Positions 1 through 16,955 of a stretch of DNA of 49,700 bases are shown here, piece after piece. The first letter of the stretch is position 1. Each line of letters begins with the position of its first letter. The position numbers and the translations under genes are program-made. This DNA comes from Escherichia coli (lineage in GTDB: Bacteria > Pseudomonadota > Gammaproteobacteria > Enterobacterales > Enterobacteriaceae): assembly GCF_003334255.1 (NCBI RefSeq), contig NZ_QOWU01000038.1; one strand, given 5' to 3'. Under the pieces are notes generated by a model that made no database searches, was not told the DNA's origin, and was given only the letters and a program-made list of their open reading frames with translations.

Positions 1-2
1 AG

Positions 3-368
3 CTGATAGAAACAGAAGCCACTGGAGCACCTCAAAAACACCATCATACACTAAATCAGTAAGTTGGCAGCATCACCCTAGTTGCCAAACAATTAGTGCA
101 GGCCTGCCAACCTACAGAAGAATCATTAATGCCGATTGTGAGCCGCCTTGATGCAGAAAATCGTTGTCCACTGGAAGCATTAATTATTCGTCGATTATTA
201 ATTCAGGCGGCGAATTTTACCGAGAAGCAAACTGTTGAACCGGAGCCGCAACCGCAGCCAATGCCCGTTGACGATGGTGGGCCAGGCTGTCTGGGCATCA
301 TTAAAATTATTTTCTATATTTTTATCTTTGCTGGTTTGATAGGAAAAATACTCCATCTGTTCGGGTGA
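3..368 (+). pseudogene. djlB: 3' region of a DjlB-like J-protein paralog, with an in-frame TAA at 60-62; downstream frame 96-368 encodes a DjlC-like C-terminus with a hydrophobic tail
   Basis: Frame-3 translation 63-368 (..[64 protein letters not shown]) parallels the DjlC C-terminus encoded at 1738-3189 (..[55 protein letters not shown]). The same frame is open from nt 3 but hits TAA at 60-62; the track ORF starts at GTG 96. Confidence 0.5.
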
Positions 369-377
369 CAGTCGACG

Positions 378-932
378 TTAATGTGCGGGAAGCCCGGCAA
401 GTAATCTTTCCGCATTTTTGTAATGTTGTTTGGCGGCCAGTTTTAACCATTTTTGAGATTCATAATGGTTAACATTAATACCTGAGCCATTTCTGTAGAT
501 CAAACCTAAAGTATATTGAGCATGAGCATACCCTTGTTCAGCTGCTTCCTTATACCAGAGAATTGCTTTACGGGTGTCGGGTTTGACCCCCAGACCTTTG
601 AGGTAGATCCACCCCAGTTTACTTTGCGCGCGTGGATTTTCCTGTTCCGCTGATTGCTCATACCAGTATCTCGCCTGTGTATAATCCAGTGGTTTACCGT
701 CGCTACCATGAAGATAAAATTCTCCAAGGCGATATTGCGACGTTGAGTGACCATGAATCGCGGAAAGCTCCGTGGCTGCCGTGGTGAATGGAAGACTGCC
801 CGGTGAGCTTAAATAATCAAAGGCATAATTCACCATGGCTTTATCACGCAACGTCGTTTTCTTGGGTTGGCTAATACAGGTAATTGCTGCAACTATAAAA
901 ATTGCGAATATATACATTAATTTTTTATTCAT
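378..932 (-). CDS. ybeT: Sel1/TPR-like repeat protein with N-terminal signal peptide
   Basis: 184-aa ORF; hydrophobic N-terminus [19 protein letters not shown]; Sel1-type repeats ([32 protein letters not shown]); position between the two J-protein genes. Confidence 0.8.
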
Positions 933-1033
933 GTGTGAATGCTTCGATTTTCTTTTTATTTTGAAAGCGTCAAGTTTATACTCATCAATAATAAAAAAGT
1001 AGTCAGTTAATGCACTTAAGGGATTATTAACAA

Positions 1034-1741
1034 ATGAATAAGGAAGAACAATATCTTCTTTTTGCGCTTTCTGCGCCCATGGAAATACTTAATCAGGGTT
1101 GCAAACCCGCGCATGACTCGCCAAAAATGTATACTGGGATAAAAGAATTCGAGCTCTCATCATCCTGGGGAATAAATAATCGTGATGATTTAATTCAGAC
1201 TATTTATCAGATGACTGATGATGGTCATGCCAATGATTTAGCTGGCTTATATCTGACATGGCATCGCTCTTCCCCTGAAGAGTGGAAAGCATTAATTGCT
1301 GGTGGCTCGGAGAGAGGGTTGATTTATACCCAATTCGTTGCCCAAACCGCTATGTGCTGTGGGGAAGGGGGAATCAAAGCCTGGGATTATGTTCGAATGG
1401 GGTTTCTGTCACGGGTCGGTGTGCTCAACAAGTGGCTGACGGAAGAAGAGAGTTTATGGCTGCAATCGCGCGTCTATGTACGAGCTCACCATTACTATCA
1501 CAGCTGGATGCACTATTTTTCCGCCTATTCGTTAGGACGTCTCTACTGGCAATCTTCTCAGTGCGAAGACAACACTTCGCTACGCGAGGCGCTAACCCTG
1601 TACAAATACGATAGCGCCGGGAGTCGTATGTTCGAAGAGCTGGCAGCGGGAAGCGATCGTTTCTATGCCACGCTTCCCTGGCAGCCATTAACTGTCCAGT
1701 CTGAATGCCCGGTAACGCTTAAGGATGTGAGCGACCTATGA
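1034..1741 (+). CDS. ybeU: Conserved protein of unknown function (YbeU/YbeR family)
   Basis: 235-aa ORF; its stop TGA 1739-1741 overlaps the ATG of the next gene (ATGA). Confidence 0.8.
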
Positions 1742-3189
1742 AAACATGTTGGCAAATCCTCGAAATTGAAAGCACGACGCAAATAGACATTATCCGCCAG
1801 GCTTATCTTGCTCGCTTACCGTTGTGTCATCCCGAAACCGATCCGCAAGGGTTTAAAGCATTACGCCAGGCCTATGAAGAGGCCCTGCGACTGGCGGTAA
1901 ATCCTGTCGAGGAAGCAGATGATGAAGAAAAAGATGCTGCCGCTGAACATGAAATACTACGTGCATTCAGGACATTACTGGATTCAGAAAGTGATCGTTT
2001 TCAGCCTTCCGCCTGGCAGAAATTTATTCAGCAATTAAATACCTGGAACATGGAGGATGTCGATCAATTACGCTGGCCGCTGTGTGCAATCGCCATAGAA
2101 GCGCGATATCTTTCATTAAATTGTGCTTCTTTGCTGGCAGAGCGTTTGAACTGGCATTCATTTAATGACAGCGAAGGAATGGATGAGGAAGAAAGGGAGG
2201 CTTTTCTTGAGGCCATTCAGGCTGGTGATTGTTTCGATTTCCTTAGCCTTCTGGAATATCCCATTGCGTTGCAGAACCAGACTGTTGAGTATTACTTCGC
2301 GCTGGAACGTTGCTGCCGTTACCATCCTGACTATGTCACTGCGTTTTTGGCGATGGAAGGTCCGTGGTTAATTCCTGATGATGCAAAGTTACATCGCAAA
2401 CTGTTGCGCTGGTACAGCTCGGTGCAAACAGGTATGGCGGAACTCATTCCTGTCGCTCAACAGTGGCAAACGGAAGAACCAGAAAGCGAAGATGCCCGGT
2501 ATTACTTGTGTGCACAACGTTTGTACTGCGGCGAGGGGGAAAGCCTGCTTGCCGATCTCTGCGCGTACTGGGAAAGTTACCCATCTACACAAGCTGATAA
2601 TTTGTTGTTGCAGTGGAGCAAGCGTCATTGCCCGGATTATTTCGCGTTATTAGTGATGGTTATCGAAGCGCGGAGCATGGTAGATGCGCAAGGTCAACCG
2701 CTGAAATATGTTCCTGGTGAGAGCGCCCGGACGCGGCTGTTATGGGCGGAGATTTTACATAGCGGAAAATTATCGCCGTTAGGTCAATCGTTTATTGAGT
2801 CGTTATTCTTCAAGCGCAAAGCATGGGCGTGGTGGAAATCGAGAGTCGGTAGCGAGACAGAGCAAGATTCACCGTTCCTGGATTTGTATCGGGTAGCGGA
2901 ACAGGTAGTACTTGAAGCGTTTCCGAAACAAGAGATGCTGGCCCGTCTTAATACAAGGCTGGAAGGCGGAGATGCTCATCCATTAGAGGCCATTGTCACC
3001 CGGATGCTTTTGACGAAAGTGAAACTCGAGCCGGAGGATGAAGATGTCGATGAGCCAACACCTGAAAATCATGAAGAAAAAAATGATGAGGGTGAAAAAC
3101 CACAGAGCATTACCAGCATTATCAAAATCAGTTTAACGGTGCTGGTGATAGGTTATGCTCTCGGCAAAATCGCGATGTTGTTTAGCTGA
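1738..3189 (+). CDS. djlC: J-domain co-chaperone partner of HscC, with C-terminal hydrophobic tail
   Basis: 483-aa ORF; N-terminal J-domain-like region (..[33 protein letters not shown]..); acidic linker; C-terminal hydrophobic segment [17 protein letters not shown]. Confidence 0.85.
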
Positions 3190-3204
3190 CGATGTGTTTT
3201 TTGC

Positions 3205-3243
3205 GCCGATGCCGGATGCAGCGTTTACGCCGCATCCGGCAGC
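3205..3243. repeat. REP-type palindromic unit between convergent djlC and hscC
   Basis: gccgatgccggatgcagcgtttacgccgcatccggcagc; GCCGGATG..CATCCGGC palindrome. Confidence 0.6.
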
Positions 3244-3248
3244 CGTGT

Positions 3249-4919
3249 TTATGGGATCTCAATGGCTAAATAATCGCTCGCCCGCCGCCGAACTTCATCC
3301 ACGCGGGCCATATCGTTTGACTGCAACGCCGCATCAAAATCGGTGATCACCCGGCCGATCTCTTCTCGCTCGTCACCCAGCGCCCGCGCCCACAACTCTT
3401 CCAGTTTGGCTTTAAAGGTGCGATTGATGAGCATATCGCGCGGATAAATTTTCAATGCGGATAACCGCGTCCGACTCTCTTCAATCTGCTGCGCGCTCAA
3501 TGTTACCGGGCTGTGGTTAATCACTCTGGACTTAACGCTGCCGTCTTCCAGAAGCACGTCAACTTCAAGCAACCCGTTGATATCATAACTAAAGCGAATA
3601 TCAATCGACTGATAAGCCCCGGTTTTCTTCAACGGCACATCGAAGGATTCCACCAGAATGTTGTTTTTAACTTTGTGGTTTTCTCCCTGATAGACGTTAA
3701 CCGTAATTGAATCCTGTTCCGGGTGCATGGTTGAATAAGTTTCTACACGCGACACGGGCACAGTGGTGTTTCGTTCAATAATCGGCGAGAAAATGCCGGA
3801 AACGCCCTGGCGGTTAACTTCAACGCCCAACGAGTAAGGGCAAATATCAGTGAGGATTACCTCTTCAATATCTTCACTGCGTAAGCGGCAGGCGGCCTGG
3901 ATTGCTGCGCCCAGCGCGACAATGGTGCTCGGATCGTAACTTTGATACGGTAATTTGCCAAACAGACGCACGGCGATTCGCTGCACCAGCGGCATTTGTG
4001 ACGCGCCGCCAACCAGCACCAGACTGTCGATTTGACTCGGCTTCAGACGCGCATCGCGCAACGCCTGTTCAATCGGCACTCGCAAGCGATTGAGCAGCGG
4101 CAACCACAAATCTTCCAGTTCGTTCTCGTAAAATTCGCATTCCCGCGTTTCTTCCTGATACTGCCAGCGAATGTGCAATGGCGATTGATTGCTACATTTT
4201 GCCGCTTCCACACAGGCGTACAAGGCTGCCAGTTCACTCTCGTTAAGCGTGGTCCTGGCGACATCCGCGCGTTTTAAAACCTCATCGACCAGCATATGGG
4301 TAAAATCTTCGCCACCAAGAAAGTTGTCGCCAGCGGAGGCGTGAACTTCAATCACCGGCGTGGCGTACTCAAGCACCGTAACGTCAAACGTGCCGCCACC
4401 GAGATCAAACACCAGCGAACGGGTATTTTGTTGGGTATGCAGGCCATACGCCATCGCAGCTGCTGTGGGTTCATTAATTAAGCGTACCGCATTTAACCCG
4501 GCTAACTCCGCTGCTAAACGGGTATGCTTGCGTTGTTCATCGCTGAAATAAGCCGGAACGGAGATCACCACATCTTTAATCGGACGTTGCAGAAATTCTT
4601 CGGCATCTTCTTTTAATGAGCGTAATACCAAAGAGGACAGTTCTGGCGCGTTAAATGTGTCGCTGCCTAACCGCCAGTTGGTATTACTGCCCATTGCACG
4701 TTTAAATAACGCTGCCGTTTTATCCGGATGCGAAGTACGCCGTGATACAGCCGGTTTTCCGACTAAAATATGATTATTTTCATCCATGCTAATTATGGAT
4801 GGTGTTAAATATTCACCGAACTTATTTGGAATTAATTGCGCGGCACCGTCTTTCCAGACGGCAATTAAACTATTGGTAGTACCGAGATCGATACCAATGG
4901 CGAGTTCTGCATTATCTAT
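3249..4919 (-). CDS. hscC: Atypical Hsp70-family chaperone; conserved N-terminus is encoded upstream of the first ATG but no canonical in-frame start codon exists
   Basis: Track ORF 3249-4787 (512 aa) starts at an internal Met. The same frame continues upstream as QDINAIDNAELAIGIDLGTTNSLIAVWKDGAAQLIPNKFGEYLTPSIIS-MDENNH.., carrying the Hsp70 phosphate-1 motif IGIDLGTTNS. An in-frame TAA lies at 4958-4956; between it and 4787 there is no ATG, GTG or TTG, only ATA codons at 4928-4926 and 4919-4917. Confidence 0.8.
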   Translation of the reverse strand: MDNAELAIGIDLGTTNSLIAVWKDGAAQLIPNKFGEYLTPSIISMDENNHILVGKPAVSRRTSHPDKTAALFKRAMGSNTNWRLGSDTFNAPELSSLVLRSLKEDAEEFLQRPIKDVVISVPAYFSDEQRKHTRLAAELAGLNAVRLINEPTAAAMAYGLHTQQNTRSLVFDLGGGTFDVTVLEYATPVIEVHASAGDNFLGGEDFTHMLVDEVLKRADVARTTLNESELAALYACVEAAKCSNQSPLHIRWQYQEETRECEFYENELEDLWLPLLNRLRVPIEQALRDARLKPSQIDSLVLVGGASQMPLVQRIAVRLFGKLPYQSYDPSTIVALGAAIQAACRLRSEDIEEVILTDICPYSLGVEVNRQGVSGIFSPIIERNTTVPVSRVETYSTMHPEQDSITVNVYQGENHKVKNNILVESFDVPLKKTGAYQSIDIRFSYDINGLLEVDVLLEDGSVKSRVINHSPVTLSAQQIEESRTRLSALKIYPRDMLINRTFKAKLEELWARALGDEREEIGRVITDFDAALQSNDMARVDEVRRRASDYLAIEIP

Positions 4920-5002
4920 TGCATTTATATCTTGAAAGAAAAAGAGATAAACAGATTAAGACCACCCAGGTAACGCGTGGTGATCTTAATCAATGACGTG
5001 TG

Positions 5003-5938
5003 TTAAGCGTAAAATTTCAGACGATCAGCCAGTAAATCAACAAAGCCCTGACGATCAACATCGACCATTACGGTGGCATTCGGTTTATTGCCTGTCAGAT
5101 AATAATAATCAACAACCGTCATACCCTGGGTATATTTCCCCTGTGTTTCCACGCCAACCCAGCGCTCAACAGAGGTAAATAACTCCGGTTTCAACAGCCA
5201 GGCGATGGTGCATGGGTCATGCAGTGGTGCGCCGACAAAGCCCCATTTTTCGTCTTTATGATATTCGAGGAAGAAATCCAGCAGTTCGGCAACAATGGTT
5301 GAAACAGGGTTACCAATCGCGCGGAAACGCTCGGTGTCTTCAACGTGGATTTGTGCTTTATGAGTAACATCCAGACCGGCCATCACCACCGGGATCCCTG
5401 ACTGGAAGACAATTTCTGCCGCTTCCGGGTCAACGTAAATATTAAATTCAGCCGCAGGCGTCCAGTTACCCAGCCCCATAGCGCCACCCATAATCACGAT
5501 ACGGGCAATTTTGCTATGCAGTTCCGGATGGCTATTGAGCAGCAAGGCAACGTTAGTTTGCGGTCCGGTAGACACAATGGTGACAGGTTCCGCACTTTCA
5601 CGCAGCGTTTTCGCCATCAGCTCTACCGCCGTACAGTTTTGCGGTGCGAATGTCGGTTCCGGTAATGCCGGGCCGTCGAGACCGCTTTCGCCGTGCACAT
5701 TGTCCGCGATAATCAACTCACGCATTAACGGTTTTACCGCGCCGCCTGCTACCGGAATATCGGTGCGATTAAGCAAGGTCAGCATACGCAGAACATTGCG
5801 TAAGGTTTTTTCTGGTGTCTGGTTTCCGGCGGAAGACGTAATTGCTTTGACATCAAGCTCTGGTGAGGCGAGGGCGAGAACTATTGCGATAGCGTCGTCA
5901 TGACCTGGGTCGCAATCTAACAGAATTGGCAGTGCCAT
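5003..5938 (-). CDS. rihA: Pyrimidine-specific ribonucleoside hydrolase (IU-NH family)
   Basis: N-terminal [12 protein letters not shown] nucleoside-hydrolase motif; start refined to ATG 5938 (311 aa), preceded by AAGGAG; the track ORF adds 11 codons upstream. Confidence 0.9.
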
Positions 5939-6055
5939 TGTTGCTCCTTGTTGTGTGCTTCTTTGCGACAAGGGTAACGCCAGGATGTAACAGATACGAG
6001 GGGCGAAACGATAAAGCGTGAGATGGCGCGCAATTGGGTATGCGCGCCAGAGTGA

Positions 6056-6781
6056 TTAATGCAGGATTTTCGCGAGGAAGTCTTTTGCGCGGTCCGATTT
6101 CGGATCATCGAAGAAAGCGTCTTTCGGCGAGTCTTCGACAATTTTACCCTCGTCCATAAAGATCACCCGATTCGCCACTTTACGGGCAAAGCCCATTTCG
6201 TGGGTCACCACCATCATGGTCATTCCTTCGTTCGCCAGTTCCACCATCACGTCCAGTACTTCGTTGATCATCTCCGGATCCAGCGCCGATGTCGGTTCGT
6301 CAAACAGCATCGCAATAGGATCCATACACAACGCGCGAGCGATTGCCACACGCTGCTGCTGACCGCCGGAAAGCTGCGCCGGAAACTTATTGGCGTGAGC
6401 AGAAAGCCCGACACGCTCCAGCAGTTTCAGGGCTTTTTCACGAGCCGGCGCTTTATCGCGTTTAAGCACTTTCACCTGCGCCAGGGTCAGGTTTTCGATA
6501 ATCGACAGATGAGGGAACAGCTCGAAATGCTGGAATACCATCCCGACGCGGGAACGCAGCTTTGCCAGATCGGTTTTCTTGTCGTTAACCACGATACCAT
6601 CGACGGTGATTTCACCTTGCTGCACCGGTTCGAGGCCGTTGACGGTTTTAATCAGCGTTGATTTGCCGGAACCAGACGGGCCGCAAACCACCACCACTTC
6701 GCCTTTTTTCACTTCGGTTGAGCAGTCGGTCAGCACCTGAAAGTGACCATGCCATTTTGAAACATTTTTCAGGGTAATCAT
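6056..6781 (-). CDS. gltL: Glutamate/aspartate ABC transporter ATP-binding subunit
   Basis: Walker [13 protein letters not shown] signature LSGGQQQR, Walker [12 protein letters not shown]. Confidence 0.9.
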
Positions 6782-7455
6782 TATGCTGTCCTTCTTTTCA
6801 AGTAGCTGACCAACAACGACGCGCTAAGACTAATAACGAAATAAACAAATCCGGCAAACAGGATCATCTCAACCTGCGTACCATCACGCTCACCAATGGT
6901 TGAGGCGGTACGGAAGAAATCGGCCAGGGATAACACATACACCAGTGAGGTATCCTGGAACAGTACGATGCCCTGAGTGAGCAGCAGCGGCACCATCGCG
7001 CGGAACGCCTGCGGCAGAATAATCAGTTTCATCGACTGCCAGTGAGTCATTCCCAACGCCAGCGCGGCGCTCGATTGACCACGAGAAATACTTTGAATAC
7101 CAGCACGGATAATCTCTGAATAGTAGGCCGCTTCAAACATCGAAAACGCCACCATCGCCGAAATTAAACGGATATCATTTTTTGGCGATAATCCCAGCAC
7201 GTTTTGCAGAAAACCCGGCACGATCAGGTAAAACCACAGCAAAACCATAACTAAAGGAATCGAGCGGAATACGTTAACGTAGGCTTTGGCAAACCACGCC
7301 ACGGGCGCAAAGCTGGATAAACGCATCACCGCCAGCATCGTGCCCCACAAAATACCAATCACTACCGCCGTGACGGTGATTTTCAGGGTGATCACCAGCC
7401 CGTCGAGCAGATATGGCAGGGAAGGGACAATGGAACTCCAGTCAAACTCGTACAT
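6781..7455 (-). CDS. gltK: Glutamate/aspartate ABC transporter permease
   Basis: 224-aa polytopic membrane protein; stop overlaps gltL start (TAATG). Confidence 0.9.
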
Positions 7456-8195
7456 TATTTGCCCCCCATGTTGCCAGGCAGGCGAACTTTACGTTCAACC
7501 AGCGTCATCACCAGCATGATAAAAGCGTTAATCAACACATACGCCAGCGTAATGGCGGTAAACGACTCCCAGGCATGGGCTGAGTAATCGAGCAATTTAC
7601 CCGCCTGCGCCGCCATATCCACCAGACCGATAGTCGAGGCGATGGCGGAGTTTTTCACCAGGTTCATCATCTCTGAGGTCATCGGCGGGACGATAACGCG
7701 ATAAGCATTAGGCAGCAGTACGTATCGATAAGCCTGCGGTAGCGTCAGGCCCATCGCCAGCGCGGCATTTTTTTGCCCTCGCGGCAGCGACTGAATCGCG
7801 GCGCGTACCTGTTCGCAAACACGGGCGGCGGTAAACAGCCCCAGGCAGAGCATGGATGAAAGGAAAAACTGAATATTGGGATCCAGCTCGGCCTTAAACC
7901 ACATGCCGATTTTCTCCGGCAGCAGCTCCGGGATCACCAGATACCAGGTAAAGAATTGCACAATCAACGGCACGTTGCGGAACAGTTCGACATACAACGT
8001 ACCCAGACCAGAGAGAAAACGGTTTGGAACGGTACGTAAAATGCCGAAAAATGAACCGACGAGGAAAGCGATAATCCAGGCGCAGATCGACAAAGCGATC
8101 GTCACCTGAAAACCACTCCAGATCCAACCAAGATAGGTGGTGTTGCCGAACGGGGCTTGTTGTAAAAAAATACCCCAGTTCCAGTCTATAGACAT
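7455..8195 (-). CDS. gltJ: Glutamate/aspartate ABC transporter permease
   Basis: 246-aa membrane protein; stop overlaps gltK start (TAATG); GGAG 8 nt upstream of ATG 8195. Confidence 0.9.
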
Positions 8196-8202
8196 AAATC
8201 TA

Positions 8203-8242
8203 CTCCAGAAAAAAGAGGGTAGCAGCGTTAACTGCTACCCTC
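8203..8242 (-). terminator. Intrinsic terminator/attenuator hairpin between gltI and gltJ
   Basis: Perfect 11-bp stem gagggtagcag/ctgctaccctc (8215-8225 / 8232-8242), loop cgttaa, followed on the minus strand by TTTTTT (8214-8209) that runs directly into the gltJ ribosome-binding site. Confidence 0.7.
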
Positions 8243-8370
8243 GAAGATTGTTACCCAGCGTATTGCGGTTTTCAGGCCCGATGGGGAACGACCATCAGGC
8301 GTATAGTCTGTCCGTGCTACGTAACAATCGAGAGGGCTGGAATTTCCGCCCCTGGTTCTTGTAATTAGTT
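8209..8370 (-). ncRNA. sroC: gltI 3'UTR-derived small RNA (SroC-like)
   Basis: Positional: the gltI-gltJ spacer ending at the hairpin terminator is where SroC is described in E. coli; the 5' end is not determinable from sequence alone. Confidence 0.45.
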
Positions 8371-9273
8371 CAGTGCCTTGTCATTCGGTTCTTTGAACAG
8401 TGCTTTCATTTCGTCTGACAGTTCGAAATTCATGTTCAGGTTTTTCGGCGGAATTGGATTTTTGAACCACTTATCAAACCATTTTTCCGCTTCACCGGAG
8501 GTCTGCACCTGAGCGATGGTGTCATCCATCAGCTTTTTGAACTGCGGATCATCTTTACGCAACATACAACCGTAGGCCTCCTGAGACTGCGGCTTGCCGA
8601 CGATTTCCCAGTTGTCTGGTTTCTTCGCTTTCGCACGTTCACCGGCCAGCAGAGCGTCATCCATCATAAAGGCAACGGCACGACCGCTTTCCAGGGTGCG
8701 GAAAGAGTCACCGTGATCTTTGGCGCTGATGATGCGCATATTCATTTTTTGCTCTTCATTCAGTTTGTTGAGCAAAACTTCAGAGGTAGTGCCGGAAGTG
8801 ACGACTACGGCTTTGTCTTTCAGGTTGGCAAAATCTTTGATATCGCCACCCTTTTTGGTCAACAGGCGCGTACCGACCACGAAAATAGTGTCAGAGAAAG
8901 CCGCCTGTTTTTGGCGTTCGACGTTGTTGGTGGTAGAACCACATTCAAAATCGAAAGTGCCGTTTTGCAGCAGTGGAATACGGTTTTGTGAGGTAATCGG
9001 AATCAGTTTTACCTGCAAGTCCGGTTTGTTGAGTTTCTTTTTCACTGCTTCAACAATGGCGTTGGAGTAATCCTGCGAGTAACCCACCACTTTTTGCTGA
9101 TTGTCGTAATAAGAGAAAGGCACTGAAGATTCACGGTGACCGACGACAATCACACCGTTTTTGGCGATTTTGTCCAGAGTACTGCCCGCTGCCGGGGCGG
9201 CGTCATCTGCCTGTGCCAGTCCTGCGGAAAGCGCCAGGGCGAGGATTGCTGTGGCAGGTTTACGTAATTGCAT
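8365..9273 (-). CDS. gltI: Periplasmic glutamate/aspartate-binding protein
   Basis: Start refined to ATG 9273 (MQLRKPATAILALALSAGLAQA signal peptide) with AAGGAG upstream; the track ORF extends 25 codons further. Confidence 0.9.
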   Translation of the reverse strand: MQLRKPATAILALALSAGLAQADDAAPAAGSTLDKIAKNGVIVVGHRESSVPFSYYDNQQKVVGYSQDYSNAIVEAVKKKLNKPDLQVKLIPITSQNRIPLLQNGTFDFECGSTTNNVERQKQAAFSDTIFVVGTRLLTKKGGDIKDFANLKDKAVVVTSGTTSEVLLNKLNEEQKMNMRIISAKDHGDSFRTLESGRAVAFMMDDALLAGERAKAKKPDNWEIVGKPQSQEAYGCMLRKDDPQFKKLMDDTIAQVQTSGEAEKWFDKWFKNPIPPKNLNMNFELSDEMKALFKEPNDKALN

Positions 9274-9669
9274 ATCCAACTCCTTTATCTTCTGCGTTAA
9301 GAACGCATGGATACCCGTTGTGAGTGTTTGTGTTGTTATCGTCTGCAACTTTATTGTGCAGTGTTGTGCCTGTTAGGTAACATTTAGTTTGGCTAAATGT
9401 AAAGATATTGCTGTTTTATTGTTTGTTTTTGCGAGATGCGCCGCACCATTCCGAAGCAAAATTCTTAAAATGCACTCTTTTAGTGCTACCGCTGGATTAC
9501 TGTGGTGCAACTAGGTTGTACTGATGCTGATTCAGGGTTTGCCTTGTATAACAAAGCAATAGATGTGCCAAAGTTGGATAGGAGAATATTGTTATCCGGA
9601 TAATGCACTGATGCCGCATCCGGTGAGCGTGCCGAAATATGGGATGTATTCCGGCACGATAAGAAGGGA

Positions 9670-11208
9670 TTATTTACGTCGCTGACGCAGACTCATCAAC
9701 ACAGCAGCAAAACCAAACAATGCCGTCAGCACCCACAGCGGCCAGTTGCCGGTACGTGCGTATGGTGTGAGTCCGGTGGTCGGCGTCACGTTAGTGGTTA
9801 ACACCTCGCGGGTGAACTGCGGGATCATCGCCTGAATCTCACCCTGCGGGCCAATCACCGCCGTAATGCCGTTGTTGGTGCTGCGCAACAGTGGGCGCGC
9901 CAGCTCCAGCGCACGCATTCGCGCCATCTGGAAGTGTTGCCATGGACCAATAGATTTACCAAACCACGCATCGTTGGAGATAGTCAGCAGATAGTCGGTA
10001 TCCGGGCGGAAGTTATCGCGCACTTGCTCGCCGAGAATGATCTCGTAGCAAATAGCCGCAGTAAGCTCAATACCATTTGCCGACAGCGGCGGCTGGATAT
10101 ATGGCCCACGGCTGAACGACGACATCGGCAGATCAAAGAACGGTGCTAACGGACGCAGAATCGACTCCAGCGGGACAAACTCGCCAAACGGCACCAGATG
10201 GTTTTTGTTATAGCGATCGGCTGATTCGTAGCTGTACGGCGCACCTTTACCCAGCGTGATGATGGTGTTGTAGGTATCGTAGCGGTTCTGCTTATTGAGA
10301 CGCGCGTCGACAATCCCGGTTACCAGCGAGCTACCTTTATCACGCAACTCACCGTCCAGTGCTTTGAGGAACGGTTGCTGATTAATTTCCAGATCGGTTA
10401 TCGCCGACTCCGGCCAGATAATCAACGATGATTTGCCCATCAGCGGTGCCGTTGCGTTGTAGTAAATCTTCAGCGTATTAAGAAGCTGGCCTTCGTCCCA
10501 TTTCAGCGATTGCGGAATATCGCCCTGAACCATCGAAACCTGAATGGTTTTCTCCGGTTGTGGGGTAAACCACTGGATGTAACGCAGCGGGAAGGGAAGG
10601 GCAAACAGCACGACGGCCACCACCAGCGGACGCCAGTTGCGTTTGACCAACGCCAGTGCCAGCAGGCCACTAACCATCATCAGCAGGAAGTTAATGGCTT
10701 CCACGCCCATTATCGGTGCCAGCCCTTTTAACGGGCCATCAATCTGGCTATAGCCGAACTGTAACCACGGGAAGCCGGTCAGTACCCAACCGCGCAGAAA
10801 CTCGGTCACTTGCCAGAGGGCAGGGGCGGCAATCGCTACGCGCAGCCAGGTGGTTTTCGGCCACAGACGCGACAGCACGCCAGCAAACAGTCCGGTATAC
10901 AGCGACAAATACGCCGCCAGCAGCACCACCAGGAAGATGTTAACCGGGCCAGGCATTCCGCCAAAGGTCGCGATGCTGACATAGACCCAGTTAATACCGC
11001 TGCCAAAGAGGCCAAATCCCCAGCAAAAGCCAATAGCGGCAGACTGGAGTGGACGGCGGTTAAAGGTCAACGCCTGAAGCCCCATCAGCGAAATAATCGC
11101 CGCAGGCCAGACGTCGTAAGGAGAGAAGGCCAGCGTTCCGCAGGCACCGAATAATAACGCCAGCAGCAGGCGAATGCGCTGGCGTTCAATTAATGAGGCA
11201 AAAGCCAT
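9670..11208 (-). CDS. lnt: Apolipoprotein N-acyltransferase
   Basis: 512-aa membrane protein with C-terminal carbon-nitrogen hydrolase domain; conserved position before corC. Confidence 0.9.
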
Positions 11209-11232
11209 GTAGTTATCTATCCAGTTTCGGTT

Positions 11233-12111
11233 TTATTCATCCAGCTTCGGCTGGGGTGAGTCATCCGGGATTTTGACATGAACCTGAATAATACGCCGAC
11301 TGTCGGCCATCGCCACTTTGAACTGGTAACCGTCGATGTCGATAGTTTCGCCACGCGCCGGAAGATGCCCAAATGCCTGCATCACCAGACCACCGATAGT
11401 GTCGACTTCTTCATCGCTAAAGTGGGTGCCGAACGCTTCGTTGAAGTCTTCAATGGAAGCCAGTGCGCGTACGGTCCAGGTATGACGACTCAGCTGACGG
11501 AAGTCGATATCATCTTCTTCGTCATACTCGTCTTCAATCTCACCAACAATCAGTTCCAGGATGTCTTCAATGGTCACCAGACCGGAAACCCCACCGAATT
11601 CGTCAATAACGATCGCCATGTGGTAACGCTGAGAGCGAAACTCTTTCAGCATCCGGTCTACGCGCTTACTTTCAGGAACGACAACCGCCTGACGTAACAC
11701 TTTGTCCATGCTGAAGGCTTCAGCATCGCTGCGCATAAACGGCAGCAAGTCTTTCGCCATCAGAATCCCTTCAATGTGATCTTTGTCTTCGCTAATCACC
11801 GGGAAACGTGAGTGGGCGGACTCGATGATGACATCAAGACATTCGTCCAGCGTCTGGTTGCGTTTCAGGGTAATCATCTGGGAGCGGGGGATCATGATGT
11901 CGCGAACGCGTTGGTCTGCGATGTCCATCACCCCTTCGAGCATATCGCGCGTATCTTCGTCGATAAGGTCGTTCTGCCCGGAATCACGGATCAGCGCCAG
12001 CAGTTCGTCACGGTTTTTCGGTTCACCGTGGAAAAGTTGGCTGAGTAACAGGGAGAAAAATCCCTTCTTGTTGCTTATCGTGTCACTACTGTGTGAATTG
12101 TCGTCGCTCAT
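11233..12111 (-). CDS. corC: CBS-domain / CorC-HlyC family Mg/Co efflux-associated protein
   Basis: 292-aa ORF with tandem CBS domains and a C-terminal transporter-associated domain. Confidence 0.85.
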
Positions 12112-12200
12112 GGCGTCGTATGGGTTCTCATGTTAGTTAATCAAAACGCCGTCGTTAATCACCAACGGCGGGGACGTCTGCCAGTCAAATGCCTGGCAAA

Positions 12201-12668
12201 TTATTCTTTCTCGGCAATGTACGGATCCTCATAGCCCAGAGCAAGCATAATCTCTGTTTCGAGGGCTTCCATTTCTTCTGCTTCGTCATCTTCGATGTGA
12301 TCGTAACCTAACAAATGCAGACTGCCGTGCACCACCATATGCGCCCAGTGCGCCTCCAGTGGTTTGCCTTGCTCCTGAGCTTCCTTCTCAACCACCTGAC
12401 GGCAGATAACCAGATCGCCCAGTAGCGACATTTCCATGCCAGGCGGCACTTCAAACGGGAAGGAGAGCACGTTGGTCGGCTTATCCTTACCGCGATAGGT
12501 CAGATTCAGACTGTGGCTTTCGGCGGTATCGACCACGCGAATCGTCACTTCCGATTCTTCCTGAAACTGCGGGATCACCGCATTCAGCCATGTCTGAAAC
12601 TGGCTCTCTTCCGGTAACCCGGAATTATCTTCACATGCCAGTTGTAAATCGAGGATCACCTGACTCAT
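12201..12668 (-). CDS. ybeY: Endoribonuclease YbeY (16S rRNA 3'-end maturation)
   Basis: 155 aa; metal-binding motif [11 protein letters not shown]; start overlaps ybeZ stop (ATGA). Confidence 0.9.
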
Positions 12669-13705
12669 TTTTGTTCCTGTTCTTCGCGCTTGCGTTCTGC
12701 TGCCAGCGCCGCTTTTCGTTTTTGTTCGGCTTCTTCCCAGGCTTCATAGGCGTTAACGATACGCGCCACCACAGGGTGACGAACCACGTCTTCGCTGTGG
12801 AAGAAGTTAAAGCTGATCTCTTCGACATCGGCCAGCACTTCGATGGCGTGACGTAAGCCTGATTTAGTATTACGCGGCAGGTCGATCTGTGTGACGTCGC
12901 CGGTGATAACCGCTTTTGAGTTAAAACCGATACGGGTCAGGAACATCTTCATCTGTTCGATGGTGGTGTTCTGGCTCTCATCGAGAATGATAAACGCGTC
13001 GTTCAGCGTACGACCACGCATATAGGCCAGCGGTGCGACTTCAATAACGTTGCGCTCAATCAGTTTCTCGACTTTCTCAAAGCCCAGCATTTCAAACAGC
13101 GCGTCGTACAGCGGGCGCAGATACGGGTCTACTTTCTGGCTTAAATCGCCAGGCAGGAAGCCCAGTTTCTCACCGGCTTCTACTGCCGGACGAGTCAGCA
13201 GAATACGGCGAATTTCCTGACGCTCCAGGGCATCAACTGCCGCAGCCACTGCCAGGTAGGTTTTACCCGTACCCGCCGGGCCAACGCCGAAGGTAATGTC
13301 ATGGTCGAGAATATTGGCGATGTACTGCGCCTGGTTTGGCGTGCGCGGCTTAATTACGCCGCGTTTGGTTTTGATATTGACCGCTTTGCCGTACTCCGGC
13401 ACGCTCTCCGCGCTTTGCTCCAGTACCCGCGCTTCTTTAATCGCAAGGTGGATCTGTTCCGGTTCGATATCCTGAATCTGACCGCGCATCGGGGCAGTAT
13501 CGACATACAGGCTACGCAGAATGTCTGCCGCAGCGGTGACGCAAATCGGACGGCCGGTCAGTTTAAAGTGGTTATCGCGGCGATTGATCTCGATGCCGAG
13601 ACGGCGTTCGAGCTGCTTGATGTTGTCATCAAACGGGCCGCACAGGCTCAACAGACGCGCATTGTCTGCTGGCTCCAGGGTGATTTCGCGAGTGTCTATG
13701 TTCAA
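12665..13705 (-). CDS. ybeZ: PhoH-like ATPase
   Basis: Walker A GPAGTGKT; start refined to TTG 13705 (product [12 protein letters not shown].., 346 aa) with AGAGGA 6 nt upstream; the track ORF starts 13 codons earlier at an ATG with no ribosome-binding site. Confidence 0.8.
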
Positions 13706-13857
13706 ACCGTTCCTCTTATCTGTATGCCGCCGGAAGCTGAACATTCACCGGCCTATAAGGAAATTATTCACGCCACAGGAAAAAGGCGCAAGCATTGCAA
13801 TAAAGATGGGGATAAAGAGAGAAAAAACAAGGCCCACCGGAACGGCAGGCCTGAGAA

Positions 13858-15282
13858 TTACGGCTGATAATAACCCACGCCAAGGTCGTTTTCTTTGCGG
13901 GTACGGGCAATCACTGATTCCGGTGTTTCTGCCACGCGCAGACCCATTTCATCTTCAGTACGCACCACTTTACCGCGCAGAGAGTTCGGGTAGACGTCGG
14001 TAATTTCTACATCGACGAATTTACCGATCATATCCGGCGTGCCTTCGAAGTTGACCACGCGGTTATTTTCCGTACGCCCGGAAAGCTCCATGATGCTCTT
14101 ACGCGATGTACCTTCTACCAGAATACGCTGGGTGGTGCCGAGCATCCGGCGGCTCCACGCCATCGCTTGCTGATTAATGCGCTCTTGCAGAATATACAGA
14201 CGCTGCTTCTTCTCTTCTTCCGGAACATCATCAACCATATCGGCGGCTGGTGTACCCGGACGTGCAGAGAAGATAAAGCTGTAGCTCATGTCGAAATTGA
14301 CGTCGGCAATCAGCTTCATCGTTTTCTCGAAGTCTTCGGTGGTTTCGCCAGGGAAGCCAACGATGAAATCAGAACTGATCTGAATATCTGGACGCGCCGC
14401 ACGCAGTTTACGGATGATCGCTTTGTACTCCAGCGCCGTATGGGTACGGCCCATCAGGTTCAGAATGCGATCGGAACCGCTCTGTACCGGCAGATGCAGG
14501 AAGCTCACCAGCTCCGGCGTGTCGCGATACACTTCGATGATATCGTCGGTGAATTCGATCGGATGGCTGGTGGTAAAGCGAATACGATCGATCCCGTCGA
14601 TCGCAGTAACCAGACGCAGCAGATCGGCAAACGATCCGGTGGTGCCGTCGTAGTTTTCACCACGCCAGGCGTTCACGTTCTGACCGAGCAGGTTGACTTC
14701 ACGCACGCCCTGAGCCGCAAGCTGGGCAATCTCAAACAGAATATCGTCGGACGGACGGCTTACCTCTTCACCACGGGTGTAAGGCACCACGCAGTAGGTG
14801 CAATATTTATTGCAGCCTTCCATGATGGAGACAAACGCGGTCGGCCCTTCGGCGCGCGGTTCCGGTAGACGGTCAAACTTCTCGATTTCCGGGAAGCTGA
14901 TATCTACAACCGGGCTGCGGTCGCCACGCACGGAGTTGATCATCTCCGGCAGACGGTGCAGCGTTTGCGGCCCAAAAATAATATCGACATAGTGGGCGCG
15001 CTGGCGAATGTGCTCGCCTTCTTGCGATGCCACGCAGCCACCGACGCCGATAATCAGGTCTGGATTCTTCTCTTTTAACAGTTTCCAGCGACCCAACTGA
15101 TGGAAGACTTTTTCCTGAGCCTTCTCGCGGATTGAGCAGGTGTTCAGCAGCAGCACATCCGCTTCTTCCGCCACGTCGGTCAGTTGATAGCCGTGGGTGG
15201 CATCCAGCAGATCGGCCATCTTCGATGAATCGTACTCGTTCATCTGACAGCCCCAGGTTTTAATATGGAGTTTTTTGGTCAT
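13858..15282 (-). CDS. miaB: tRNA-i6A37 methylthiotransferase (radical SAM)
   Basis: 474 aa; N-terminal MTTase cysteines, radical-SAM CxxxCxxC (CNKYCTYC), C-terminal TRAM domain. Confidence 0.9.
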
Positions 15283-15427
15283 CGACTTGCTCTTGCGAAA
15301 TAGTAGCCAGGAATGCAGGGCGCATAGTGTAATGCTTTGCTGCCGTTGTGACCAGTATGAGCGTTATCAGCCCTTAGGGGTAAAAATCCTGTAAACTTAA
15401 AGCATATTGCTAACAGGATGATTGACC

Positions 15428-16603
15428 ATGACAAATCAACCAACGGAAATTGCCATTGTCGGCGGAGGAATGGTCGGCGGCGCACTGGCGCTGGGGCTGG
15501 CACAGCACGGATTTGCGGTAACGGTGATCGAGCACGCAGAACCAGCGCCGTTTGTCGCTGATAGCCAACCGGACGTGCGGATCTCGGCGATCAGCGCGGC
15601 TTCGGTATCATTGCTTAAAGGGTTAGGGGTCTGGGATGCAGTACAGGCTATGCGTTGCCATCCTTACCGCAGACTGGAAACGTGGGAGTGGGAAACGGCG
15701 CATGTGGTGTTTGACGCCGCTGAACTTAAGCTACCGCTGCTTGGCTATATGGTGGAAAACACTGTCCTGCAACAGGCGTTGTGGCAGGCGCTGGAAGCGC
15801 ATCCGAAAGTAACGTTACGTGTGCCAGGCTCGCTGATTGCGCTGCATCGCCATGATGATCTTCAGGAGCTGGAGCTGAAAGGCGGTGAAGTGATTCGCGC
15901 GAAGCTGGTGATTGGTGCCGACGGCGCAAATTCGCAGGTGCGGCAGATGGCGGGAATTGGCGTTCATGCATGGCAGTATGCGCAGTCGTGCATGTTGATT
16001 AGCGTCCAGTGCGAGAACGATCCCGGCGACAGCACCTGGCAGCAATTTACTCCGGACGGACCGCGTGCGTTTCTGCCGTTGTTTGATAACTGGGCATCGC
16101 TGGTGTGGTATGACTCTCCGGCGCGTATTCGCCAGTTGCAGAATATGAATATGGCACAGCTCCAGGCGGAAATCGCGAAGCATTTCCCGTCGCGTCTGGG
16201 TTACGTTACACCGCTTGCCGCTGGTGCGTTTCCGCTGACGCGTCGCCATGCGTTGCAGTACGTGCAGCCAGGGCTTGCGCTGGTGGGCGATGCCGCGCAT
16301 ACCATCCATCCGCTGGCGGGGCAGGGAGTGAATCTTGGTTATCGTGATGTCGATGCCCTGATTGATGTTCTGGTCAACGCCCGCAGCTACGGCGAAGCGT
16401 GGGCCAGTTATCCTGTCCTCAAGCGTTACCAGATGCGGCGCATGGCGGATAACTTCATTATGCAAAGCGGTATGGATCTGTTTTATGCCGGATTCAGCAA
16501 TAATCTGCCACCACTGCGTTTTATGCGTAATCTCGGGTTAATGGCGGCGGAGCGTGCTGGCGTGTTGAAACGTCAGGCGCTGAAATATGCGTTAGGGTTG
16601 TAG
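15428..16603 (+). CDS. ubiF: FAD-dependent ubiquinone biosynthesis hydroxylase
   Basis: FAD-binding GxGxxG (IVGGGMVGG); start taken at ATG 15428 (the track start 15422 is a TTG two codons upstream). Confidence 0.85.
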   Translation: MTNQPTEIAIVGGGMVGGALALGLAQHGFAVTVIEHAEPAPFVADSQPDVRISAISAASVSLLKGLGVWDAVQAMRCHPYRRLETWEWETAHVVFDAAELKLPLLGYMVENTVLQQALWQALEAHPKVTLRVPGSLIALHRHDDLQELELKGGEVIRAKLVIGADGANSQVRQMAGIGVHAWQYAQSCMLISVQCENDPGDSTWQQFTPDGPRAFLPLFDNWASLVWYDSPARIRQLQNMNMAQLQAEIAKHFPSRLGYVTPLAAGAFPLTRRHALQYVQPGLALVGDAAHTIHPLAGQGVNLGYRDVDALIDVLVNARSYGEAWASYPVLKRYQMRRMADNFIMQSGMDLFYAGFSNNLPPLRFMRNLGLMAAERAGVLKRQALKYALGL

Positions 16604-16609
16604 CCTTAC

Positions 16610-16720
16610 AACATTGCCGGATGCGTGCCAACCGTAGGTCGGATAAGACGCGGCAGCGTCGCATCCGACATTGAAGGATAAGACGTGTCAACATCGCATT
16701 CGACATTGAATGAACGCAGA
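16610..16720. repeat. REP-like palindromic units with an imperfect tandem ~35-bp repeat
   Basis: ggataagacgcggcagcgtcgcatccgacattgaa followed by ggataagacgtgtcaacatcgcattcgacattgaa; preceded by tgccggatgcg. Confidence 0.6.
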
Positions 16721-16723
16721 AAA

Positions 16724-16752
16724 GCAAAAAGCTCGCCGAAGCGAGCTTTTTT
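16724..16752. terminator. Bidirectional intrinsic terminator (ubiF on +, tRNA operon on -)
   Basis: aaaaa-gctcgc-cgaa-gcgagc-tttttt: 6-bp GC stem flanked by an A-run and a T-run. Confidence 0.75.
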
Positions 16753-16756
16753 AATG

Positions 16757-16831
16757 TGGCTGGGGTACGAGGATTCGAACCTCGGAATGCCGGAATCAGA
16801 ATCCGGTGCCTTACCGCTTGGCGATACCCCA
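16757..16831 (-). tRNA. glnV: tRNA-Gln (anticodon CUG)
   Basis: Minus-strand 75 nt: TGGGGTATCGCCAAGCGGTAAGGCACCGGATTCTGATTCCGGCATTCCGAGGTTCGAATCCTCGTACCCCAGCCA; anticodon loop TTCTGAT, encoded CCA end. glnV and glnX are identical so the symbol is nominal. Confidence 0.9.
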
Positions 16832-16878
16832 ACAAATTGGTTTTGAATTTGCCGAACATATTCGACACATTCAGAATT

Positions 16879-16955
16879 TGGTGGCTACGACGGGATTCGA
16901 ACCTGTGACCCCATCATTATGAGTGATGTGCTCTAACCAACTGAGCTACGTAGCC
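16879..16955 (-). tRNA. metT: Elongator tRNA-Met (anticodon CAU)
   Basis: Minus-strand 77 nt: GGCTACGTAGCTCAGTTGGTTAGAGCACATCACTCATAATGATGGGGTCACAGGTTCGAATCCCGTCGTAGCCACCA. Confidence 0.9.

Follow-up and report, generated by a model that had tools for sequence, protein, structure and literature searches.

An IS1 insertion probably underlies the interruption of djlB at the start of an Escherichia coli contig

The first 368 positions of a 49,700-nucleotide stretch of Escherichia coli DNA (contig NZ_QOWU01000038.1 of assembly GCF_003334255.1, hereafter the window) hold one outer end of the insertion sequence IS1 joined directly to the 3' part of djlB (ybeS). This arrangement was very probably produced by a simple insertion, in which a 768-bp IS1 transposed into djlB codons 380-382 and duplicated the 9-mer CTAGTTGCC. 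The original prediction had described the same positions as a djlB-like J-protein gene interrupted by an in-frame stop codon, with its hydrophobic tail separated from the J-domain part, and had attributed the break to a nonsense mutation or a frameshift. The interruption and the separation of the tail were borne out, with the break placed at the IS1 junction at codon 380. The attributed cause was not, given that bases 1-77 match an IS1 end at 77 of 77 positions and that ~3,700 genomes carry other DNA upstream of base 78.

Bases 1-77 of the window correspond, on the minus strand, to the left (IRL) end of IS1, cut by the edge of the contig, with 77/77 identity, no mismatches and no matches expected by chance. 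The segment comprises the terminal inverted repeat of the element (about 55-77, minus strand) and the first 22 nt of insA (1-22, minus strand), whose GTG start lies at 20-22 and whose first seven codons (VASVSIS) are present, and it is the same as the 77 nt with which an annotated IS1A of strain HUM3355 terminates (L003, 3001-3077). The transposase genes of the element lie on the strand opposite to djlB. The short-read contig broke off in this multi-copy repeat and the window starts at that contig end, so that only 77 nt of the IS1 are visible in it; complete 768-bp copies were seen in other strains only. A 400-nt query including the IS1 end matched 76,668 places in E. coli genomes, with tens of thousands of annotated IS1 copies.

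Re-reading of frame 3 of the window (3-368) located the TAA at 60-62, the first canonical start after it (GTG) at 96 and an ORF of 90 aa from there, all as originally given. Because bases 1-77 are an exact IS1 left end, the TAA belongs to the terminal sequence of IS1 and is not a mutated djlB codon; the five codons that separate it from base 78 (VGSIT) belong to IS1 as well. The picture of a single frame blocked by a stop had to be abandoned, since everything to the left of base 78, the TAA included, is IS1 and unrelated to djlB; the continuity of the frame through bases 1-77 is a coincidence. The similarity to DjlC, which had been thought to start right after the stop, begins exactly at base 78, five codons later. 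With a slash marking the joint, the junction reads ...GGCAGCATCACC/CTAGTTGCC, or ...GCATCACC/CTAGTTGCC with a longer IS1 side, and it falls exactly at the IS1 terminus, after the last base of the element.

From base 78, where djlB codon 380 begins, to base 368 the plus strand of the window carries a djlB 3' fragment that consists of codons 380-475 and the TGA stop and has no 5' start codon of its own. Its translation is identical to residues 380-475 of K-12 DjlB, the sole difference in the DNA being a synonymous one at base 344. Over positions 78-9377 (9.3 kb) the K-12 MG1655 genome is colinear with the window and differs from it by 4 mismatches; upstream of 78 its DNA is unrelated, djlB reading GATACAGAACATACCTTATGGCCATTATAT at the positions equivalent to the IS1 part. 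A search of 5,426 complete E. coli genomes gave the same boundary, with ~3,700 of them matching the query from base 78 only, and in these the match is annotated as the djlB 3' end, followed by ybeT. The window has no uninterrupted djlB frame of ~475 aa, IS1 breaking the gene at codons 380-382, and the fragment that is present (codons 380-475) lacks the J-domain, which would be found beyond the IS1.

The nine bases adjoining the IS1 terminus (78-86, CTAGTTGCC) encode residues L-V-A of djlB codons 380-382 and are taken as the right copy of the IS1 target duplication; the same 9-mer is present in strain 23CRST021 and in contig L029, both described below, and K-12 and relatives of the window's lineage have no insertion there. 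The surroundings of the target (15 bp on either side) have a GC content of 36%, compared with 51% for the window, which fits the preference of IS1 for AT-rich targets known from the classic literature on this element.

A simple insertion at this site predicts that DjlB residues 1-382 are read into the right end of IS1, giving a product of 408 aa that ends in GNDSNLLIVFYVQIMPDDFVMQLHRF. Precisely this fusion is encoded once in the public collection, in contig L029 of assembly GCA_902711545.2, where djlB codons 1-382 precede a left junction that reads ...CCATTATAT CTAGTTGCC/GGTAATGACTCC, the contig stopping 127 nt into IS1. The right copy of CTAGTTGCC is thus found in the window and the left copy beside the IRR end of IS1 in another assembly accession, and the two ends together reconstruct an IS1 flanked by a CTAGTTGCC duplication. 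We infer that the left junction also belongs to the window's strain, although the djlB flank of that junction, with 0-1 mismatches to several strains, is too conserved to link GCA_902711545.2 with the window lineage. On the right side, contig CBCRYS010000035.1 (L032, draft assembly GCA_965136505.1), which was found through the variant GltL Y11H, is 100% identical to window positions 1-16781 and reaches 42 nt further into IS1, ending 119 nt inside the element. The exact IS1/djlB junction was found in draft assemblies only and was absent from the 5,426 complete E. coli genomes. The lone complete genome with apparent 100% coverage, that of HUM3355, was discarded as an artefact of a match in two pieces, its IS1 lying at a different djlB site.

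Several points weigh against a simple insertion. The left side of the element lies outside the window, the contig with the left junction and the contig identical to the window come from different assembly accessions, and the look-up of the 408-aa product gave one contig only, though the right junction seems to be common to several assemblies. Moreover, IS1-associated deletions do occur at the djlB locus, as in E. coli G1/2 (NZ_CP060083.1), a Symbioflor-type strain with a single base change relative to the window over 11.4 kb. At 11228-12740 of G1/2 an IS1 in the same orientation as that of the window is accompanied by a deletion that starts at djlB codon ~196, takes in ybeT and ends in ybeU, of which the last 159 bp are left. 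The two thus share the rare ATA start codon of hscC that marks their lineage, the orientation of IS1 and a destroyed djlB, whereas they differ in that G1/2 has lost djlB from codon ~196, ybeT and most of ybeU, and the window keeps the djlB tail and intact ybeT and ybeU genes.

The similarity to G1/2 speaks for a different history, in which IS1 inserted elsewhere in djlB, for instance near codon 196, and an adjacent deletion or an IS1-IS1 recombination then brought its left end against codon 380, so that djlB would miss internal sequence or be parted from its 5' half. That the other junction lies beyond the window leaves room for such a history, yet a deletion would leave the target duplication absent, and a public assembly does contain the complementary junction, in which the correct IS1 end adjoins the second copy of CTAGTTGCC. 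Relatives of the window, found by a look-up of the HscC product of 512 aa that the ATA start should yield, bear on the same question: several of them (L020-L022 and L025) share the rare hscC ATA, yet their djlB is intact at 475 aa and their CTAGTTGCC site empty, which shows that the ancestor had no IS1 at this position. We therefore consider the rearrangement unlikely. Since these relatives keep the intact gene and the empty target, the insertion into djlB is a later event that is recent within the ATA lineage.

A chimeric assembly, in which IS1 and djlB were wrongly joined and djlB is really intact, might be suspected in a short-read draft, and the same contig has a probable repeat collapse in a tRNA cluster. 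Against this, repeats are where assemblers stop, and joints between unique and repeated sequence are not something that they create. In the window the transition coincides with the last base of IS1; an NCBI assembly contig shows the same joint on the right, several similar places being on record; and the reciprocal left junction with the correct 9-bp duplication occurs independently. An artefact is accordingly very improbable. The least credible reading is the nonsense point mutation or frameshift in an otherwise continuous djlB, to which we give practically no weight: the frame is indeed open on both sides of the TAA, but bases 1-77 have no similarity to djlB, which in K-12 reads GATACAGAACATACCTTATGGCCATTATAT at this place, and are an exact IS1 end, so this model is refuted. 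The simple insertion of IS1 is the reading retained in what follows.

DjlB and DjlC are class C, tail-anchored J-domain proteins that have been assigned to the Hsp70 protein HscC; stimulation of HscC has been shown for DjlC and inferred for DjlB, and membrane insertion has been demonstrated for DjlC (PMC8215388). In our alignment the two proteins are similar over their full length, with 50% identity, in agreement with the figure given in PMC8215388. DjlB 380-475 aligns with DjlC 385-483, and the DjlB segment VAKQLVQA, from L380, has a counterpart in DjlC, so that coding similarity begins before GTG 96, as had been predicted; reference DjlB proteins do not end at the position of the TAA. The proposed DjlC-like C-terminus with a hydrophobic tail was likewise supported, both by this alignment and by hydropathy, as the Kyte-Doolittle maximum (19-residue window) reaches 2.39 at DjlB 450-468, within a C-terminal hydrophobic segment (window 285-365, plus strand) that aligns with the DjlC tail and is the tail anchor of DjlB. 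At the other end of the protein, K-12 DjlB gives a weak Pfam match to the DnaJ domain at residues 4-47 (E = 0.0017), correspondingly to the presence of HPE in place of the canonical HPD at residues 31-33 in the J-domains of both DjlB and DjlC (window 1828-1836 for djlC). A scan of DjlB, DjlC and the tail against NCBIfam returned no family matches, Pfam giving only the weak DnaJ match. Compared with K-12, the window has a remnant identical to DjlB 380-475 and the same gene order (ybeT-ybeU-djlC-hscC), and differs in that its DjlB is split; the J-domain part would be without the tail anchor, and the tail is without the J-domain.

The consequences of the insertion for the protein can be proposed as follows. 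After the jump of IS1 into codons 380-382, with duplication of the 9-bp CTAGTTGCC, translation of the upstream part of djlB would read past codon 382 into the right end of IS1 and stop after 26 foreign residues. The predicted product, a DjlB of 408 aa, would keep the N-terminal J-domain and the central region and would be without the last 93 residues, which comprise a conserved segment, an acidic/proline linker and the membrane tail anchor. The hydropathy peak (DjlB 450-468) would accordingly sit in the orphaned piece and not in the 408-aa product. DjlB function is in this case likely to be lost or the protein mislocalised, while the intact paralogue DjlC would remain to serve HscC.

The orphaned 3' piece includes the 90-aa ORF from GTG 96 and, nested within it, an ORF of 79 aa from ATG 129 (96-368, plus strand). 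Inspection of the bases before GTG 96 revealed no convincing Shine-Dalgarno sequence, and before ATG 129 there is only a weak purine run (AGAAGAA). A promoter-like hybrid site at 64-93 (plus strand), with a -35 hexamer TTGGCA in the IS1 end, an 18-nt spacer and a -10 hexamer AACAAT in djlB, is a consensus match only; it matches 9 of 12 positions, and the 4 such sites in the region are not above chance (2.5 +/- 1.4 in shuffled sequence). The 79-aa ORF has been called as a gene of its own in about 2,000 blocks (2001 listed in the assembly index) and the 90-aa ORF in a few assemblies, such gene-caller predictions not being evidence of expression. Expression of this putative tail peptide is unsupported, and the 291-bp remnant (78-368), promoterless and start-less as it appears, is probably inert.

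The original prediction had also pointed to an anomalous start of hscC and suggested that the whole Hsp70 module may be decaying. The anomaly was confirmed, the start codon of hscC (4917-4919, minus strand) being ATA in the window and ATG in K-12 and FORC 064. Among the 4,411 complete E. coli genomes carrying this stretch, ATA is found in 3 (the Symbioflor-type G1/2, G6/7 and G8), and it occurs in addition in some draft and metagenome contigs. No in-frame canonical start is present in hscC before Met45, and an HscC made from Met45 would miss the N-terminal phosphate-binding motif of the Hsp70 ATPase domain (IGIDLGTTNS). In E. coli reporters, initiation at AUA is about 1-2% of that at AUG (bioRxiv 10.1101/063800), and HscC synthesis is expected to be cut to about 1-2% by the ATA start. 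The gene with this start is named full-length HscC by PGAP. In the window lineage the break in djlB coincides with this start-codon knock-down, and the idea of a decaying module is partly supported by the two lesions together, the rare ATG to ATA change and the split djlB. It does not extend to the neighbouring genes: djlC and ybeU match K-12 at every base, and ybeT, likewise intact, departs from it by a single change (base 437) that FORC 064 shares. These are two lesions and not a wholesale decay of the Hsp70 module.

Other differences from K-12 were noted in the window. The tRNA cluster between asnB and ubiF (16757-16955) has only tRNA-Gln(CTG) and tRNA-Met, where K-12 and G1/2 have seven genes (Met-Leu-Gln-Gln-Met-Gln-Gln). 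This is most likely a collapse of the short-read assembly through identical tRNA copies, since with a genuine deletion tRNA-Leu would be lost along with two of the four tRNA-Gln genes, the latter two being presumably the only copies with the UUG anticodon. The IS5 found upstream of gltI in K-12 MG1655 is absent from the lnt-gltI intergenic region (~9373-9377), as in most non-K-12 strains examined. At position 6751 (gltL, minus strand) there is a private non-synonymous SNP that changes Tyr11 to His near the N-terminus of this ABC ATPase, and GltL Tyr11His is common to a small set of contigs only.

Disruptions of djlB recur in other E. coli strains. In 23CRST021 the 9-mer used in the window has received a complete 768-bp IS1 that points the other way and is flanked on each side by CTAGTTGCC; both djlB pieces are annotated as incomplete by RefSeq, the 291-bp piece as "J domain-containing protein, incomplete, missing N-terminus". 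Another IS1 lies 21 bp upstream of the window's site (L018, duplication CATACCTTA), and an IS1 end is found about 12 bp downstream of it (L009/L010). Disruptions of other kinds comprise an IS5 end (L007), an IS630-like element (L015), a 1-bp deletion (L013) and a deletion joint (L011/L012). These independent disruptions cluster in an AT-rich stretch of ~35 bp shortly before the tail-anchor sequence, at djlB codons ~373-386 (K-12 L001 ~2980-3020; window 78-100 and the upstream equivalents in L002, L007, L009, L010, L013, L015 and L018), in which IS1 occupies three or four sites in both orientations. These cases were found through the 79- and 90-aa ORFs that start just downstream, so their discovery is biased toward this stretch, and in complete genomes IS1 is also found at other djlB positions. 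For both reasons the notion of a djlB hot spot under selection was marked down.

The recurrence of disruption across E. coli suggests that djlB is dispensable in many lineages. A break that is not neutral, whether through recurrent selection to free DjlB from the membrane or to silence HscC, or through an active 79-aa peptide made from the hybrid promoter at the IS1 end, is conceivable, but we hold it to be unlikely.

The disruption of djlB by IS1 is ordinary damage by a mobile element, a phenomenon already known and routinely annotated. The window's allele resembles other insertions of IS1A/IS1B-type elements (768 bp, 9-bp duplication) in its terminal sequence, in a junction at the last base of the element and in its AT-rich target, and it resembles the alleles of 23CRST021 and HUM3355 in having djlB in two pseudogene pieces, as RefSeq annotates them there. 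Nothing in it is different in kind, and what it has of its own is the combination of site and orientation. What looks like a nonsense mutation close to the border of such a stretch may turn out to be the end of a mobile element where a contig was broken, and the case matters little beyond annotation. For the strain, it means that, of the two J-proteins that work with the minor Hsp70 protein HscC, one is disrupted, and that the start codon of hscC is very weak. The phenotype is expected to be mild, because deletion of hscC, or double deletion of djlB and djlC, gives only sensitivity to Cd2+, and the proteins of the HscC system are below the detection limit in normal growth (reviewed in PMC8215388).
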